Virus record (IMG/VR): IMGVR_UViG_3300020045_003390
Location: 1-64,000 of that record
Source: a virus
Taxonomy: Duplodnaviria > Caudoviricetes
DNA length: 64,000 bases
Strand: one strand, 5' to 3'
This document shows, in pieces, positions 8,693 through 56,842 of the stretch. The first letter of the stretch is position 1; each line of letters starts with the position of its first letter. A program made the translations under genes and the position numbers. Under the pieces are notes generated by a model, which saw nothing but the letters and a program-made list of their open reading frames with translations, made no database searches and was not told the DNA's origin.

Positions 8693-8768
8693 GCCGATTT
8701 AGCTCAGTTGGTAGAGCAACCGCCTTGTAAGCGGTAGGTAGTGAGTTCAAATCTTACAGTCGGCACCA
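8693..8768 (+). tRNA. tRNA-Thr(UGU)
   Basis: cloverleaf GCCGATT...AGTCGGC-A-CCA, anticodon loop CTTGTAA, TTCAA T-loop. Confidence 0.95.
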
Positions 8769-19429: not shown

Positions 19430-19448
19430 CAAAAATTAACTTTTAAAC

Positions 19449-19538
19449 ATTGGATAGGCTGATCCCCGAAAAGACGATTCATCACCGTCCTGCCAATTGT
19501 TCTTTGTGATGCATTTTCTTGATGAGGAAATAATAAAA
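19449..19538 (+). promoter_or_regulatory. structured RNA leader of HNH gene (copy A)
   Basis: closing stem, GAAAAG, stem-loop with loop complementary to two downstream sites, CCTGC. Confidence 0.6.
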
Positions 19539-20351
19539 ATGAAAAATGATTATTACGTGTATCTGCATAAGACTTTGGATGGTAAGGTGTTTTATGTGGG
19601 TAAAGGGAGAAATAAGAGGGCTTGGCAGAAGTTTAATAGAGGTAGAGGGTGGACTGAAGTTTCTTCCAATGGATATTCTATTGAGATGTACGCTGGAAAC
19701 TTATTTGAAAAAGATGCATTAGCTATTGAGCGCGGGTTAATTGAAACCCTCCCCAATCTGGTAAATATAAGAGCACTTAGTAGTGTAGAGTTTGATGATT
19801 ATTCAGAATATTTTGAATATGATTCAAACTCTCCTAGTGGGTTGACGCGAATCAAAGGTGTATTCACCGGAAGGTATGAACAAGGTAAACTTGGGCATTG
19901 TGGTTTAAAGGTAAAGCGTTCATGTGGTGGGCAACACTGGATGATCAAATTTAAAAACAGAAATACACAAATACATAGGATCATATGGCAACTAGTTAAT
20001 GGGAAAATCCCTGAAGGTTACGTTGTCGATCATATTAATGGTGATTCTCTGAATAATAATATCTTAAATCTCAGGGTAGTGGAAAAAGTTAAAAACAGTC
20101 GAAACACAAGGAAACGTAAAAATAACACTAGTGGTGTAGTAGGGGTTACTTTAATTGTAAACATTAAAAGGAATTCTGCCATGTGGCAGGCATTCTTTAA
20201 GGACTTAAGTGGTAAACAAACTAGTAAATGTTTCTCAATTGCTAAACTTGGTTACGATGAAGCTTTCCGCTTAGCCTGTGAATGGCGTGTAGAACAAATC
20301 AGACTTCTAAACGAACAAGGCGCGGGTTACACATCACGCCACGGAATATAA
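19539..20351 (+). CDS. homing endonuclease, GIY-YIG-like N-terminus plus HNH and AP2-like domains
   Basis: YYVYLH...FYVGKG; HRIIW...VDHINGDSLNNNILNLR; NNTSGVVGV; start 19539 follows SD GAGG. Confidence 0.88.
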   Translation: MKNDYYVYLHKTLDGKVFYVGKGRNKRAWQKFNRGRGWTEVSSNGYSIEMYAGNLFEKDALAIERGLIETLPNLVNIRALSSVEFDDYSEYFEYDSNSPSGLTRIKGVFTGRYEQGKLGHCGLKVKRSCGGQHWMIKFKNRNTQIHRIIWQLVNGKIPEGYVVDHINGDSLNNNILNLRVVEKVKNSRNTRKRKNNTSGVVGVTLIVNIKRNSAMWQAFFKDLSGKQTSKCFSIAKLGYDEAFRLACEWRVEQIRLLNEQGAGYTSRHGI

Positions 20352-22074: not shown

Positions 22075-22103
22075 TTGACATAATCTAAAACCTCTGTTAT
22101 AAT
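22075..22103 (+). promoter_or_regulatory. consensus sigma70 promoter
   Basis: TTGACA-17 nt-TATAAT with extended TG. Confidence 0.8.
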
Positions 22104-22137
22104 CCTCCTTTAGCTCGACGGCTTTAGGGGGATTTTT
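22102..22137 (+). terminator. intrinsic terminator after the tail tube gene
   Basis: ATCCTCCT...AGGGGGAT hairpin followed by TTTT. Confidence 0.55.
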
Positions 22138-22161
22138 CATTTGTACTGCTGAATAATTCTC

Positions 22162-22190
22162 TTGTAAAAGCGGGGGATGTATGTTATAAT
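22162..22190 (+). promoter_or_regulatory. sigma70-type promoter
   Basis: TTGTAA-17 nt-TATAAT with extended TG. Confidence 0.6.
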
Positions 22191-22231
22191 AGAGTCTAGA
22201 TAGATAATAAAATCTAGTCATCTAATCACTT

Positions 22232-22260
22232 AAGCCCTTCGCTTTTAGTCAAGGGCTTTT
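22232..22260 (+). terminator. intrinsic terminator
   Basis: AAGCCCTT...AAGGGCTT followed by TT. Confidence 0.6.
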
Positions 22261-22290
22261 GTTCGTTATAACAAAGAAAGGAAAATAAAT

Positions 22291-22698
22291 ATGGCACTTG
22301 ATCTTGCAAAGACCAATATCGCAGCAGAGGCTGAGTCTGGTTATGAATTTGAATTGTTGCATCCTGCAACTGGAGAGGGTACTGAGGGTTTCGTCAAAAT
22401 CCGAGGTGAGAAATCCAAGGTTGTTCAGACTCATGCCCGTAAAGTAGTTACCGAAATGCAGAAGCGTGAAAAAGTAGCTAAGGGCAAAAACAAAGAAGTT
22501 GAACTCTCGATTGAGGAATTGGAAGACATGGCTATTGATCGTGCATTTGTCCGCATTATCTCTTGGCGTGGTATTCAGGAAGATGGTGTTGATATTCCGT
22601 TTAACCGTGAAAATGCAGAGCGTGTACTGAAAGAACACCCGTGGATTCGGGAAATCGTGATGGAGGAGTCTGGAACGCTCCTCAACTTTCGACTCTGA
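22291..22698 (+). CDS. tail assembly chaperone (gpG-like)
   Basis: between tail tube and TMP; FELLHPATGE motif. Confidence 0.8.
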   Translation: MALDLAKTNIAAEAESGYEFELLHPATGEGTEGFVKIRGEKSKVVQTHARKVVTEMQKREKVAKGKNKEVELSIEELEDMAIDRAFVRIISWRGIQEDGVDIPFNRENAERVLKEHPWIREIVMEESGTLLNFRL

Positions 22699-23071
22699 AG
22701 ACTTAGAACAAGCCTTAGCCTACGCAAAACAAGAGTTCCAACTGTCAGAGACTCAACCAGACGGTAATACCCTAAAAGATGCTTTACTGAATGTACAGCG
22801 TCAAATAGGTAGAGTCCCTAAAGAGTTAGAAGACTTGGTTGAGTTACCTGAATGTATGCAGGAGTACTGGTCATGGTTTCTACGGCTCTCCAATCGTAGG
22901 CCTTCAGGAATGGGAGTATCAGCAATTTCTTACGTTGAGATGCTTGCATTCTTTCAGCTCATTGGTGTTGTTCCTGAAAGCTACGAAATTGAAGTGCTTG
23001 AAGCATTCGATAAGGTAGCTTTGAAGCATTACTCCAAGCAACAGAAAAAAGAACAAAAGGAGGCTAAGTAG
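22688..23071 (+). CDS. frameshift extension of the tail chaperone (gpT-like)
   Basis: +1 frame open 22661-23071 (DSEDLEQALAY...WSWFLRLSNRRPSGMG..AISYVEM), no good own start. Confidence 0.7.
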   Translation, partial: FDSEDLEQALAYAKQEFQLSETQPDGNTLKDALLNVQRQIGRVPKELEDLVELPECMQEYWSWFLRLSNRRPSGMGVSAISYVEMLAFFQLIGVVPESYEIEVLEAFDKVALKHYSKQQKKEQKEAK

Positions 23072-23096
23072 GAATTGCCCCGAAAGGGGCGTTCTT
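23072..23096. terminator. hairpin between convergent genes
   Basis: GCCCC-GAAA-GGGGC. Confidence 0.55.
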
Positions 23097-23131
23097 AATG
23101 TGTAGTTTATTCATAGACTGCAAATTAAGGG

Positions 23132-23431
23132 TTATTGCTGTGTCATACAACGAAGAAGTGACAGCTTGCGTAAGAGGTCATCAGACAAATCTTTTCGGTT
23201 GTAGGTCCAGTACAGGCGTTCTACAAAATCAGCCTTTGCTTCTGGCGTGTTGTCAGATTTCTCAATGACACCAATCAGGTGCTGAAGGACACTTGGGTGT
23301 TTCTGCAGAAGCTGCTTTGCGACTACATCTGTTTCTGCTTTGCGATAGCAAAGTTCTTCACCCCCAATTGCAAAAGTTGCTGTTGAGGTGATCAGTGTAA
23401 GTGCAAGCGCAACGGTCTTAATAAAGTTCAT
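23132..23431 (-). CDS. exported protein with signal peptide (moron)
   Basis: MNFIKTVALALTLITSTATFA signal-like N-terminus; SD AAGGAG; own promoter. Confidence 0.7.
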   Translation of the reverse strand: MNFIKTVALALTLITSTATFAIGGEELCYRKAETDVVAKQLLQKHPSVLQHLIGVIEKSDNTPEAKADFVERLYWTYNRKDLSDDLLRKLSLLRCMTQQ

Positions 23432-23464: not shown

Positions 23465-23493
23465 ATCATAAACGACAACTTCTACGTTGTCAA
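23465..23493 (-). promoter_or_regulatory. sigma70 promoter for the moron
   Basis: TTGACA-17 nt-TATGAT on the minus strand. Confidence 0.75.
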
Positions 23494-23507: not shown

Positions 23508-23603
23508 TAAGAGAGCTACACAGGAGTAATTACCTTGTGGAAAAGCGTTAACCCTAGCCTGCTCGTCTTATTTTTCTTTAGGGTTGTTAAGTAAGGGTTT
23601 GAT
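23508..23603 (+). promoter_or_regulatory. structured RNA leader of HNH gene (copy B)
   Basis: same layout as copy A: closing stem, hairpin, GAAAAG, loop complementary to two downstream sites, CCTGC. Confidence 0.6.
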
Positions 23604-24431
23604 ATGAATAATAAATACTATGTGTATGTGCACAAGATTGCAGATACTGGTGAAGTGTTCTATGTTGGTAGCGGAACTGGGAACCGGTGGCGCACCAGCA
23701 GCAATCGATCTGAATTATGGCACGAATCTAGCGCAAATGGCTTCGCACCGGAAAAAGTTTGGTGCGACTTGACGGTAAACGCAGCAAGAGAAGTTGAAGA
23801 ACTGCTGATTGAACTTATTGGTATAGACAATCTAGTTAACAAACACCTCCCAATGAAAACTATTGTGCTAGACAATTCAGTATTGAAGCAGTTTATTTAC
23901 TCTGAAGATAGTCCTAGTGGTCTAGTTTGGGCAGTTGATCAACACAGGGGCATAAATATACACAGTATTGGTGACGTTGCTGGGGGAAAAGAGTCTAGGA
24001 ATAATCAACCTCACAGGTGGAGGGTGAAGCCATCAGGTACAAATCAATCTGTAGCTATTCACCGGATTGTATGGGCACTCCATTCCCCTATTTCAGAGGA
24101 TAAGGTGATTGACCACATTGATGGTAATCCTTGGAATAATAGAATTGAAAACTTACGAGAAGTTGATAGAGCAACGAACTCTCGAAATACAAAGAAGCAT
24201 ACCAGTAATCGTTCAGGTGTCGCTGGTGTGCATTTTAAAAGAAATAGGGATGGGCATACTTATTGGTCTGCTACGTGGAGGGACGTTGACCAAAAGTCAC
24301 GTAGCAAGAGTTATATGATAGAGAAATATGGAAATGATGAAGCCTTCAAACTAGCTTGTGATTTTCGTAAGAATAAAATAGAAGAATTAAAAGCAAGAGG
24401 ATTTGGGTACACAGATCGACACATTGCTTAA
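23604..24431 (+). CDS. homing endonuclease, GIY-YIG-like N-terminus plus HNH and AP2-like domains
   Basis: YYVYVH...FYVGSG; HRIVW...IDHIDGNPWNNRIENLR; paralogue of 19539. Confidence 0.88.
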   Translation: MNNKYYVYVHKIADTGEVFYVGSGTGNRWRTSSNRSELWHESSANGFAPEKVWCDLTVNAAREVEELLIELIGIDNLVNKHLPMKTIVLDNSVLKQFIYSEDSPSGLVWAVDQHRGINIHSIGDVAGGKESRNNQPHRWRVKPSGTNQSVAIHRIVWALHSPISEDKVIDHIDGNPWNNRIENLREVDRATNSRNTKKHTSNRSGVAGVHFKRNRDGHTYWSATWRDVDQKSRSKSYMIEKYGNDEAFKLACDFRKNKIEELKARGFGYTDRHIA

Positions 24432-29392: not shown

Positions 29393-32300
29393 ATGAGTTC
29401 AGTAATTTATCTTGAAAATGGACTATGCCCACAAAACCGAAGAGTAGAGCAACTTACTGGAAGTATCCAAGAACTCTCCCCTGATTGGCAAACACCTTAT
29501 GTTGCGTTTGTTGATGGAAAACCTATACTTCGTGCAGACTGGAATTTAATTCCTAATGACGACCAGTCTTTAGTCTTTATTGATGCGGACGCAATACCTC
29601 AAGGTGGGGGAGGTGGTGGGTCAAACCCATTGCGTACAATTCTGATGATAGTTGTAATGATTTATGCCCCAGCGATTGCCGCCCAGATGTCCTATGCCAT
29701 GGGCGGGGGTATGGTCTTAGGGTCGGTCGGTGGACTTGCTGCTATGCAGGCTGGTGTGATGTTTGCAGGTATGGCTTTAGTCAATGCTATTGCGCCAGCA
29801 CCAAAGCCCACAAGCCCTCAACAAGCGGCGGCACTGGCGGCGGCTAGCCCCACATATAGCTTGCAAGCACAAGGTAATACTGCTCGTTTAGATGCTGCGA
29901 TTCCTGAGCATTTCGGACGGCATATAGTATACCCGGACTTTGCCGCAACCCCCTATACGGAGTATGCAGGTAATGAACAATACCTTTATCAACTCCTTTG
30001 TGTAGGCAGGGGTAGCTACGATCTTGAACCTTTAAAGATTGAAGACACCCCAATTTCAAGTTTTGATGAAATCACCACTGAAGTTATTCAGCCGTACGGC
30101 CAAGTCACCTTATTCCCTGCTAGCGTCACTACAAGTATAGAGGTTGCGGGGCAGAGTCTCTCTACTGCCTTTACTGGACCATTTATCGCAAATGCCTCTG
30201 GAACTGAAACAAACAGACTGTCATTTGATTTTGTAGCGAGTAGGGGACTTTATTATGCTAACGACAATGGTTCATTGTCGGCAGTCAGTGTGGATTTTCA
30301 AATAGAGGTTGCCTCCGTAGATGATTATGGTAACTTGATTAGTGGCTGGACAGCACTTACTATGTCATATACTAGCTGGTCAGACTGGACGTTTGTCTCG
30401 ACTCAACAAACATCAGTTAATCCATATACAGATACAGATACCCAACAGTGGCAAGTTAGCGACAAGCCATTAGGATCACTTGCTGGTCAACTAGCACAGC
30501 AAGGCTTATCAACTTGGGCACTTTATACAAGAACTAGATCAACTCATGTAGGGCTTATACAATCTGGAGCGACGACAACTGCACAACGCTGGAGCTGGAG
30601 TTTTGATATCCCTGTTGGTCGGTACACTACTCGTGTCAGGAGGCTTTCCACAGAAAGTACAGATACAAGATATTCTGATGGTATATCTTGGGTTGGCTTA
30701 CGTGCATATCACCCTGATCCGGTTGGTAAGAACTACGGCGACGTTACCTTAATCGCAGTTCGAATGAGAGCGACCGATAGCCTCAGCTCGCAGTCAAGCC
30801 GGAAACTAAATCTCATTGCAACACGAAAACTTCCTATTTGGAATGGTTCATCTTGGAGTGGATTGACTGCTACACGAAACCCAGCTTGGGCACTTGCATA
30901 CGCAGCTAAGCAAGTTGGGCAAAATGATTCAACCATTGACCTTTCTGGGCTATTAACACTCGCGAATGGGTGCACCGCTAGAGGTGATAATTTCGATGCC
31001 CGGTTTGATAGCTTTTTAAGTTTCTGGGAGGCAGCAACAAAAATATGCCAAGCAGTTAGAGCAAAACCCTTCATCCAGGGTAGTGTTTTAAGGGTTGTTC
31101 GTGACCAATCAAGTACTATTCCAGTTGCGATGTTTAGCCAAAGAAACATTGTAAAAGGCTCTTTTTCAGTTAACTATTTAATGCCAACTGAAGATACCGC
31201 TGATAGTGTTGACGTTTCTTACTTTGATGAGATTACTTGGAAGAGCGCCAAGGTACGCTCTACCCTTGCGGGTAGCACAGCAGACAAGCCAGCTAAAATT
31301 GATTTGTTTGGGGTGATTGATCGCACCAAGGCTTGGCAAGAGGGGTTATACCAAGCTGCTTGTAATAGGTATCGTCGTAAGATGATAACCTTTAAGACAG
31401 AGATGGAAGGTTTCATCCCTTCATTCTTAGACCTCGCTACAGTTCAGCATGATATGCCAGCTTGGGGGCAATCTGGTGAAGTTGTTGCTTGGAATTCTGG
31501 TACAAAAACCTTGACCCTAAGTGAACCTCCTGTTTTTACGACAGGTACTCATTATATCGCTTTACGTGATAGAGGTGGCGCTCCCAAAGGGCCGTATGCT
31601 TGTGTAGTAGGAAGTAGCCCTTACGAAGTTGTACTATCAGAATTACCTGCAATAACACCGTATGTAGGAATGGATGAAGAGCGTACTCATTTTGCATTTG
31701 GCCCTGGAATTGCTTGGAGTCAACCGATACGTGTACTTACAGCAAAGCCCACTGGTGTTAATCAAGTAGAGATAACTGCTGTAAACGAAGATGCAAGTGT
31801 ACACACTGCGGATGTCGGTGTAACAATGCCAAGGCAGATATTTTCGCAGTTAGCAACTTATCAAAATGCACCTACTGTTTTAGGTGTAACTGCATACCCT
31901 GCACCATTTGCACCAAATAAACTCCTCGTTCAATGGAGTCCTAGCCCGTGGGCAACGCACTATTATGTAGAACAAAGTCAAGATAGGGTTAACTGGACTA
32001 GAAGTGCTGATGTTGAGTCTAATAATGTAACATTTCAGAAGCTTTTTTCTGGTAGTGCTTACGTCCGTGTTGCTGCAGTTAACCTTACCCGAGGTCCATG
32101 GTTTGAAGTTCCTATAACACCATCCCCAGTACCTGAAGATGTTTCTGCATTAGCCATAGAAGATATTAATCTATCTTGGCCTGCGGTTAGTGATCAGGAT
32201 ATTGTAGGTTATAGAATTAAGTTTCATTATGGCACAAATCTAGAATGGGGGACAGCAAACCTTCTTTATGATGGTCTAGTGACATCATCCCCATACCTCA

Positions 32301-51056: not shown

Positions 51057-51132
51057 TGGTCCGTCTGGAGAGATTCAAACTCCCGGCTAATCGTGTAGAA
51101 AACGACTACTCTATTCACTGAGTTACAGACGG
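51057..51132 (-). tRNA. tRNA-Arg(UCU)
   Basis: acceptor CCGTCTG/CAGACGG-A-CCA, anticodon loop TTTCTAC. Confidence 0.9.
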
Positions 51133-52845: not shown

Positions 52846-52920
52846 TGGTGCAACAGAGTTGATTCGAACAACTGACCAAGAAATTATGAGTTTCCAGCTC
52901 TTCCACTGAGCTACTGTTGC
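52846..52920 (-). tRNA. tRNA with CAU anticodon (elongator Met or Ile2)
   Basis: GCAACAG/CTGTTGC-A-CCA, loop CTCATAA, TTCGAAT; paired position 1-72, so not initiator-like. Confidence 0.9.
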
Positions 52921-56290: not shown

Positions 56291-56842
56291 TTATTTTCCG
56301 TGGCGTTCAGTGTAGTCAGCACCTTCACTAACTAACTTAAGAATCATATCATCCCTGAGTTTTGAGGCCAGTTCAAACGCTTTCTCAGTGCCATATTTAT
56401 TACAAGAAAAACTTCTAAGTTTCAACTTCCCACACTTATCAACCCAACAAGCACACCATGCGTTGTGGTTTGCTGAGTACGAAACCCCGACTTTACCTGA
56501 TGAGTTACGTTTGGTTATCCCCACATTCTTTGAGTTATCAGGTGCTGGCTTTAGCTTTAAGTTTGAAATGCGATTGTCAAACGGTATGCCATTAAGATGA
56601 TCCACAATCATACCCTCTATAATTTTGGCATTAAACATTTCCCAAATTACTACATGAACTTGGTATCCACTCCCGTCGACTACTACCCGCCAGTAACTAG
56701 GTTTTCCTTTTCTCTTGTACTGACAGCCAACACGATCACCACTCCTGTGTAAAAACTGCCCCCAATTTCCCTTTTTAGAATTTTTCCAAATCAGACAAGA
56801 TGGGGACGATTCGTCATAAATAAAATAATCACTCCAATTCAT
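56291..56842 (-). CDS. HNH/AP2 homing endonuclease
   Basis: HVVIW...VDHLNGIPFDNRISNL; NSSGKVGV. Confidence 0.88.
   Translation of the reverse strand: MNWSDYFIYDESSPSCLIWKNSKKGNWGQFLHRSGDRVGCQYKRKGKPSYWRVVVDGSGYQVHVVIWEMFNAKIIEGMIVDHLNGIPFDNRISNLKLKPAPDNSKNVGITKRNSSGKVGVSYSANHNAWCACWVDKCGKLKLRSFSCNKYGTEKAFELASKLRDDMILKLVSEGADYTERHGK

Follow-up and report, generated by a model that had tools for sequence, protein, structure and literature searches.

Results

Two phage endonuclease genes with leaders of one plan

The DNA analysed here, called the window throughout, is the whole 64,000-nucleotide (nt) stretch at positions 1 to 64,000 of the IMG/VR virus record IMGVR_UViG_3300020045_003390 (Caudoviricetes). 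In the structural module of this 79-kb phage, surrounded by neck, tail terminator, tail tube and tape measure genes, lie two paralogous HNH endonuclease genes, A and B, each preceded by a leader of the same plan. Our subject is the leader of gene B (copy B, 23508–23606, + strand), which comparison with related sequences identifies as a real, conserved, three-armed leader RNA before a phage nuclease gene. Its elements follow one another in the order P1, UA, P2, GAAAA, P3, CU, the 3′ arm of P1, a U-rich linker, box 1, box 2 and ATG, where P denotes a paired region and J a junction segment. The two boxes are complementary to the loop of P3 (L3), and box 2 lies at the Shine–Dalgarno (SD) sequence.

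23508–23516 (+): P1, 5′ arm, TAAGAGAGC; partner 23561–23570
23517–23518 (+): J1/2, conserved UA, invariant in the leader alignment and the Rfam consensus
23519–23539 (+): P2 hairpin, CACAGG (23519–23524) with CTTGTG (23534–23539), one G.U pair; loop AGUAAUUAC
23540–23544 (+): J2/3, conserved GAAAA (GAAAAG is 23540–23545)
23545–23558 (+): P3 hairpin, stem G23545–C23558 and C23546–G23557; loop region GUUAACCCUA
23547–23556 (+): P3 loop (L3), GTTAACCCTA; variable, anti-SD-like address loop
23558–23562 (+): CCTGC
23559–23560 (+): J3/1, conserved CU in the leader alignment and the Rfam consensus
23561–23570 (+): P1, 3′ arm, GCTCGTCTTA; 9 base pairs (bp) with TAAGAGAGC, G23565 bulged
23571–23578 (+): U-rich linker, TTTTTCTT; in all leaders and at Rfam consensus positions 57–64
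23579–23585 (+): box 1, TAGGGTT; complementarity to the P3 loop, 7 nt; putative decoy or pseudoknot partner
23594–23599 (+): box 2, AGGGTT, 6 nt complementary to the P3 loop; overlaps the SD region
23604–24431 (+): endonuclease gene B, 275 amino acids (aa); HNH_3 and AP2-like region, weakly GIY-YIG-like N-terminal domain

The initial annotation of the window had described the closing stem, the hairpin, GAAAAG, the loop, CCTGC and the two boxes of copy B, and all of these are present base for base at the positions listed. It had also taken AGGGTT for the SD region of the HNH gene; box 2 does overlap the best anti-SD pairing site, 5–10 nt before the ATG at 23604. The P2 hairpin of copy B belongs to the long-P2 UAAUUA subtype, and in other leaders J2/3 may read GACAA, GAACA or GAACG. 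No gene lies upstream of copy B on the same strand. The corresponding features of copy A are as follows.

19447–19541 (+): copy A leader, same plan; P1 TTGG(A)/GCCAA, GAAAAG at 19468–19473
19477–19485 (+): copy A P3 loop, ATTCATCAC
19506–19511 (+): copy A box 1, GTGATG
19520–19525 (+): copy A box 2, TGATGA; SD GAGGAA, ATG at 19539
19539–20351 (+): endonuclease gene A; product of 270 aa with 40% identity to that of B

As the same annotation had proposed, copies A and B share their plan, and the loop and both boxes have changed together (in A to ATTCATCAC, GTGATG and TGATGA). Within this one genome the loops and boxes of the two copies do not cross-react. A further hairpin around the SD, P4, is clear in copy A and in most relatives.

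The product of gene B matches Pfam HNH_3 at 2e-14, AP2 at 1.2e-6 (below the Pfam cut-off) and PHROG 99. Of the two nuclease labels originally given to these genes, HNH is borne out by HNH_3; for GIY-YIG the Pfam matches at the protein N-termini (PF01541, E = 0.079–0.23; PF22945, E = 0.004–0.034) are all below the cut-off. The pattern YYVY..FYVGKG..R..E..N is conserved in the N-terminal ~95 aa (window 23604–23888 and 19539–19817; 8655–8945 in the homologue L027), and the sequences suggest that these HNH_3-AP2 proteins may have two nuclease-type domains. A third HNH_3 paralogue is encoded at 56291–56842 (−, 183 aa, 37% identical to B over residues 95–273). It has neither the N-terminal domain nor a leader, and directly follows its upstream 553-aa gene.

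Leaders of homologous nuclease genes in phages

Protein-guided searches of IMG/VR and metagenomes yielded a set of 23 phage leaders in all. The leader is present before most full-length homologues, being missing at L140, L141, L144, L146 and L080. Most N-terminally shorter homologues have no leader. The exception is L191 (446–1030), a short HNH_3-AP2 gene without the N-terminal domain that is preceded by a leader with the same loop as copy A, from which it follows that leader and open reading frame (ORF) can be recombined. Five leaders carry this same word (ATTCATCAC), including the one before a nuclease without the N-terminal domain.

The closest relative of copy B is L005, whose protein is 79% identical to that of gene B. 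The two leaders are ~96% identical over a 213-nt leader block, compared with ~80% for the 2.5-kb locus as a whole and likewise ~80% for the coding region, which speaks for constraint on the leader, and the G.U pair in P2 of copy B is an A-U pair in L005. Among catalogued phages, full-length relatives of the protein occur only in Curvibacter phage P26059A. This phage has two such genes, each with an extended −10 box (TGGTAGAAT or TGGTATAAT) followed by the same fold with new loops: ACTATTCAC with the boxes GTGAATA and GAATA, and TCCTAG with CTAGG and CTAGGA. When the region was compared with 50,697 phage records by Megablast and blastn, no relatives emerged, and blastn of the leader of an Escherichia coli member, described below, against phages returned nothing useful. 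A pattern scan of IMG/VR for GAGCTAC..GAAAAG..CCTGCTC gave 36 matches, three of which were real by inspection (L026, L027 and L033). A motif-like sequence, L018, was set aside; it has no P2 and no downstream gene.

Covariation supports the three-way junction

A covariance model was seeded with three leaders and rebuilt from eight, neither window copy being included. MAFFT by itself misaligned the leaders, and a structure-aware model was needed. Run with filters off over 86 kb, the model ranked 21 true leaders at the top, with E-values of 9e-8 for copy A and 0.0095 for copy B. In the alignment of these 21 leaders, 94.7% of the cells form standard pairs, and both sides change in 12 of the 14 pairs. 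The covariation score is 0.63, compared with 0.19 in shuffled alignments (reached in 0 of 500), and sliding the 3′ partners by 1–3 columns lowers the pairing to 29–47%. An alignment fitted to a model leans toward the structure of that model; the variety of pair types is still plain in the individual rows. P1 appears as GAGC/GCTC, GTAGC/GCTAC, CTGGC/GCCAG, AGAC/GTCT and GTGAC/GTCAC, and the P3 stem as GCG/CGC, GACG/CGUC, GACU/AGUC, GAGG/CCUC and GAUCA/UGAUC. All four modelled pairs of P2 have changed on both sides, with 100% of their cells paired. The stems covary and the invariant bases cluster in the junction.

When single sequences were folded, the cores of L005 (z = −2.05) and of the E. coli member (z = −1.97) adopted exactly the consensus three-way junction. 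The minimum-free-energy fold of the copy B core (z = −1.5) has P1, P2 and a hairpin in the P3 region that is partly unlike the consensus P3.

Relation to the int-alpA family

We scanned Rfam in E-value mode and found that both window copies match the int-alpA family (RF02996, gathering score 35.8 bits) over all 71 model positions, copy A with 26.2 and copy B with 22.8 bits. Neither copy reaches the gathering threshold, so they are divergent relatives and not formal members; five leaders of homologous nuclease genes (L055, L132, L133, L191 and L138) score 39.1–43.2 bits, above it. The int-alpA consensus has the same junction as the window copies (CUA, P2, CGAAAAG, P3, CCUG), and the P3 loop of the consensus, aaCCuUua, has its complement in the 3′ tail, uuuuuuuauaAgGG; box 1 therefore belongs to the family model. 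Copy B has the three-way junction in the order P1/P2/P3, the conserved junction bases and the G-C pair closing P3, and over model positions 57–71 it has the U-rich tail and then a purine box matching the P3 loop.

The differences are in P2 and in context. Copy B has a long P2 with the UAAUUA loop instead of the 4-bp GACG hairpin. Both window copies precede HNH genes in the structural module, whereas int-alpA lies in the gap after an integrase gene; the window copies have no integrase or alpA context, with neck and tail genes around them and HNH genes downstream. The second box at the SD and the P4 hairpin lie outside the RF02996 model. Rfam types the family as 'Gene; sRNA', whereas the evidence given here points to a cis-acting leader. 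From these sequence comparisons we conclude that copies A and B are a divergent variant of the known, functionally uncharacterised int-alpA family in a new context.

The int-alpA motif reportedly stems from a comparative survey by Weinberg et al. in 2017. The main text of the 2017 survey (PMC5737381) does not discuss int-alpA, and our full-text literature search returned no functional study of it, the name occurring only in a table of Rfam matches and as a gene-order string. The Rfam scan gave no match to any riboswitch family. A hammerhead or other ribozyme core was also considered for the leader and rejected, since CUGAUGA is lacking between P1 and P2 and Rfam gave no match.

The UAAUUA in the P2 loop (window 23527–23532) is self-complementary and common to L005, L049, L120, L051, L070, L138 and L129. 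It could permit loop–loop dimerisation or be a protein site. The other leader subclass has a GACG tetraloop at this place.

Bacterial members and their context

A scan of 185,579 species genomes was made with a pattern that fixed only the 3′ arm and loop of P2 (CGACGG), GAAAA and the P3 stem, and left the P3 loop and all downstream sequence free. It found 74 loci with 69 distinct leaders and 54 distinct loops, in Pseudomonas, Stutzerimonas, Nitrosomonas, enterobacteria, Planctomycetes, Nitrospirae and others. A same-strand ORF starts 31–60 nt after CCUG in 70 of the 74 loci. Of the 37 cases in which an upstream ORF was found, 32 have a tyrosine integrase of the P4 type there; its stop codon is often only 3–9 nt before P1 (L215–L287; for example L211, 2486–2493), so that a terminating ribosome would overlap or open the 5′ arm of P1. 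The genes after the RNA are highly variable and mostly unannotated: DUF6387, in 5 of 57 proteins, is the sole recurrent Pfam family, and Pfam and PADLOC together gave almost no annotation of the genes downstream of the bacterial members. Their reading as defence cargo is speculative.

The initial annotation had regarded the element as specific to endonucleases, and in this respect it must be revised. The leader is a divergent relative of int-alpA, a family found mostly before unrelated genes of unknown function that follow integrase genes. Because the genes downstream are unrelated, the motif is not specific to nucleases but is a general leader of mobile elements, and the nuclease genes of the phage group recruited it or were recruited by it. 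Given the same diversity, a general control of translation is more likely than binding of the nuclease to the leader of its own gene.

Loop and boxes are matched within each leader

The agreement between loop and boxes, first noticed in two copies, holds far beyond them: the 23 phage and 69 bacterial leaders share the plan, and in every permutation the cognate fit is better than the non-cognate one. For the 15 phage loop classes, the cognate duplexes have mean energies of −6.5 kcal/mol with box 1 and −7.1 kcal/mol with box 2, and permuted loops give −3.3 and −4.3 kcal/mol (0 of 2000 permutations). For the 54 bacterial loops the values for box 1 and box 2 are −7.55 and −7.45, as against −4.15 and −5.77 on permutation (0 of 1000). 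Two separated loop-complementary sites are present in 63 of the 69 distinct bacterial leaders. Across all 92 leaders, box 1 was found in 87, the median start is −25 for box 1 and −14 for box 2, and the median distance from CCUG to the start codon is 42 nt. In 77 of 84, the site that pairs best with the 16S anti-SD is overlapped by box 2. Most leaders also have P4, with its 5′ arm after box 1, box 2 and the SD in its loop, and its 3′ arm ending a few bases before the start codon (for example GUGGGA-GCGCC-UGGGAG-GGCG-...AUG).

Near-identical leaders provide the closest view of this matching. L005 and L049, from the same metagenome, are nuclease alleles at the same locus and are identical in 120 nt upstream, in P1, in P2 and in GAAAAGCG. 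The loop is TTAACCCT in L005 and TAAGTCC in L049, the next 22 nt differ at one position, and the boxes are AGGGTT twice in the one and GGACTTA twice in the other. The ORFs are near-identical in their first 24 nt and then diverge to ~40% protein identity. On this sequence evidence the loop moves together with its two boxes as one matched unit, whether the cause is patchy conversion or selection acting on point changes. In E. coli, L211 has a loop ending in ACCUUA with the box UAAGGU, and L212 a loop ending in GCCUUA with the box UAAGGC; the box 2 pairing of L212 is kept via a G.U wobble. Such natural swaps of loop and boxes between near-identical leaders amount to ready-made compensatory-mutation experiments.

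Taken together, copy B stands beyond chance because a model built from other leaders finds both window copies, because both match RF02996 over its full length, and because the fit of loop and boxes is leader-specific.

A perfect 10-nt complement of the copy B loop (TAGGGTTAAC) lies at 31984–31993 (+) inside a 1266-aa ORF, with no start codon near; ~0.1 such matches are expected by chance.

Discussion

A proposed translational switch and its weak points

We propose, with a probability of roughly 0.6, that the leader is a cis-acting control of translation in which the anti-SD-like loop pairs with a decoy or with the ribosome site. The argument for control of translation in cis is that a covarying hairpin displays the anti-SD-like loop, that this loop has two partners which exclude each other, the SD among them, and that the element is on the strand of the gene and at a fixed distance from the start codon. 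The 5′ leader of the endonuclease B mRNA would fold into the three-way junction and display L3, a loop of 7–10 nt resembling the anti-SD, which would pair with one or the other purine-rich box but never with the two together. The decoy or pseudoknot partner would be box 1, ~25 nt ahead of the start codon, and the ribosome-binding site would be box 2. In most family members box 2 would form the loop of P4 next to the start codon, and the L3–SD contact would be a kissing contact wherever P4 exists. Pairing of L3 with box 2 would keep the 30S subunit off, with little nuclease being made, and pairing with box 1 would leave the ribosome site free. In this manner the leader would set or switch the translation of a potentially harmful gene. 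The two states might be toggled by a ligand or protein bound at the junction, by the order in which the RNA folds during transcription, or by a ribosome terminating just upstream.

Several points weigh against this proposal. Its direction (pairing represses, and the default state is off) and the competition between the two pairings are what we infer from sequence, and by analogy with repZ of plasmid ColIb-P9 the pairing with box 1 could be an activator and not a decoy. The strongly conserved junction bases are unexplained by simple masking of the SD and point to an unknown partner. In the GACG-tetraloop subclass of the phage leaders (L056, L053 and L012a) the cognate loop suits box 2 no better than foreign loops do, with ranks of 7–14 out of 15. 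The asymmetry between G.U and A.C mismatches to be expected of paired RNA does not occur at box 1 (23 vs 26); at box 2 it does (35 vs 17), but there it is confounded by base composition. The P4-like hairpin at the SD of copy B is weak or doubtful (−1.2 kcal/mol), and the whole copy B leader folds no more stably than its shuffles (z = +1.06). With single-sequence folding energies so unremarkable, the case for copy B rests on comparative evidence.

Alternative explanations

A further input, be it a ligand, a protein or a terminating ribosome, is suggested by the invariant bases of the junction and by the integrase stop codon close to P1, and this leads to the possibility that the leader is a sensor switch, that is, a riboswitch or protein-binding switch. 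The junction UA/GAAAA/CU, joined in many members by the GACG loop of P2, would bind a small molecule or a protein of the host or phage, or sense the terminating ribosome. The signal would direct L3 either to box 1 or to the SD, and harmful cargo would be turned on only upon that specific signal. Such a switch would extend translational control in cis and does not exclude it; as a specific proposal we regard it as rather unlikely. Invariant bases in the junction combined with covarying stems are what aptamers have, and switches are usually built on two pairings that exclude each other. In the bacterial members the position of the integrase stop would allow the terminating ribosome to open P1, and the very diverse downstream genes argue for a general signal over gene-specific autoregulation. 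However, the element is small, no ligand or protein can be proposed from its sequence, the downstream genes share no pathway that would hint at a metabolite, and copy B has no same-strand gene upstream.

Could the RNA act in trans? For this, the junction would be freed by termination at the U-rich tract or by processing, and L3 would hit box-bearing mRNAs, its own or those of a co-resident or competing element, which would explain the orthogonal loops of co-resident copies. The typing of RF02996 as 'Gene; sRNA' (small RNA) agrees with this, as do the U-rich tract directly after P1 in all members, the non-cross-reacting loops and boxes of copies A and B, and the exchange of loop and boxes as a set between L005 and L049. 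Yet the cognate targets are always 10–40 nt downstream on the same transcript, and the spacing to the ORF is fixed; what P1 closes is a branched junction and not a simple hairpin; and at neither window copy did the terminator scan report a terminator on the + strand. Full-length loop complements elsewhere in the window are few (31984 +, 47002 − and 50203 −), lie in or far from genes, and are near chance in number. We consider a trans-acting small RNA improbable.

A structural 5′ cap or insulator is also improbable, and slightly more so. The paired 5′ end would slow 5′-end-dependent decay or block read-through, and the loop–box pairing would only compact the fold. Many phage leaders do have sigma-70-like −10 boxes 5–18 nt upstream of P1 (TGGTAGAAT, TGGTATAAT, TATAAT, TAGAAT), which would put P1 at the very 5′ end of the transcript. 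The bacterial members, however, are probably also read through from the integrase gene, and a cap leaves unexplained both the tight co-variation of loop and boxes and the SD as the loop's partner in 77 of 84 leaders.

Finally, a DNA operator, in which three copies of a 6–7-bp word (one inverted, two direct) would bind a protein such as the AP2 domain of the nuclease for transcriptional autorepression, is extremely improbable: the repeats do exist in the DNA, their words differ between nuclease alleles and I-TevI is an autorepressor (as cited in PMC3014915), but in every case the inverted word falls exactly on the loop of a hairpin whose stem pairs covary, the SD is the site of one of the direct words, a G.U wobble preserves one of the pairings, the same design stands before dozens of unrelated non-nuclease genes, and the five leaders with the word ATTCATCAC include one whose nuclease has no N-terminal domain.

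Comparison with known systems

PreQ1-class riboswitches have a small aptamer-like fold and a loop or tail that pairs with the SD and gates translation. Their junction architecture differs from that of copy B, which has no known ligand.

RNA structures that sequester the ribosome site are known for the phage homing-endonuclease genes I-TevI, Aeh1 mobE and T4 segB (PMC3014915; Gibb and Edgell 2009, PMC2655525). There, as we propose for copy B, the leader structure of a selfish nuclease gene masks the ribosome site of that gene and limits its translation. The T4-type structures are simple local hairpins containing the SD, whereas here the main anti-SD element is a distant loop and not an arm of an SD hairpin: it sits on a three-way junction 40–60 nt upstream, acts at long range and has a second, decoy partner. 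In the T4-type systems a late promoter is often inside the 5′ arm, so that late transcripts escape, whereas the promoter-like boxes of relatives of the window copies are upstream of the whole structure. On the + strand, our promoter scan called nothing upstream of or inside the leader structure of either window copy; at copy B it made a single + strand call, which is downstream and spans the start codon.

In repZ of ColIb-P9, a pseudoknot between a loop and a site proximal to the ribosome-binding site activates translation (Asano and Mizobuchi 1998, as cited in PMC8053102). This system (IncI-alpha/IncB; Rfam PK-repZ) resembles ours in that the loop of a leader hairpin pairs near the ribosome-binding site of a mobile-element gene, and translation ending just upstream remodels the structure. 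There the pseudoknot activates, and an antisense RNA competes for it. Our leaders have two boxes and not one, and share no sequence or fold similarity with it.

With this proposal int-alpA, one of many orphan RNA motifs, gains a concrete and testable cis-regulatory mechanism. From Pseudomonas to Planctomycetes, and in phages, the downstream gene starts at a fixed distance. The motif has been recruited by selfish nuclease genes of a lytic-type phage, a setting in which it is reasonable to keep a DNA-cutting enzyme under tight control. If the code is freely re-writable, the scaffold could give a compact set of orthogonal translational regulators. A wider generalisation, which we offer as unlikely, is that int-alpA-type leaders are a widespread 'address-coded' translational switch, with a constant junction as the sensor and a re-codable loop that must fit both the decoy and the ribosome site of the gene it guards. 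Under selection, elements that reside together or compete would retain orthogonal codes, and the RNAs would act in trans, the leader of one phage silencing the nuclease of a rival, or would gate harmful cargo when the junction reads a signal, for instance infection or induction.

Other features of the window

The intergenic region of leader B is shared with a gene on the opposite strand. A 99-aa gene at 23132–23431 (−) diverges from the nuclease B leader; its product has a hydrophobic N-terminus, a putative signal peptide, and matches no Pfam or PHROG family. A near-consensus sigma-70 promoter (TTGACA-17-TATGAT, 11/12) is at 23493–23465 (−) in this intergenic region, and the start and upstream region of the 99-aa gene are conserved in L005 and L049. 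The ~1 kb between the tail tube gene and this minus-strand gene (22100–23130) has short ORFs only, gave only weak, sub-threshold Rfam matches (PyrR site, EF3314_EF3315), and may hold the frameshift region of a tail chaperone. The window also has three tRNA genes: Thr-TGT at 8693–8768 (+), Arg-TCT at 51057–51132 (−) and Met-CAT at 52846–52920 (−).

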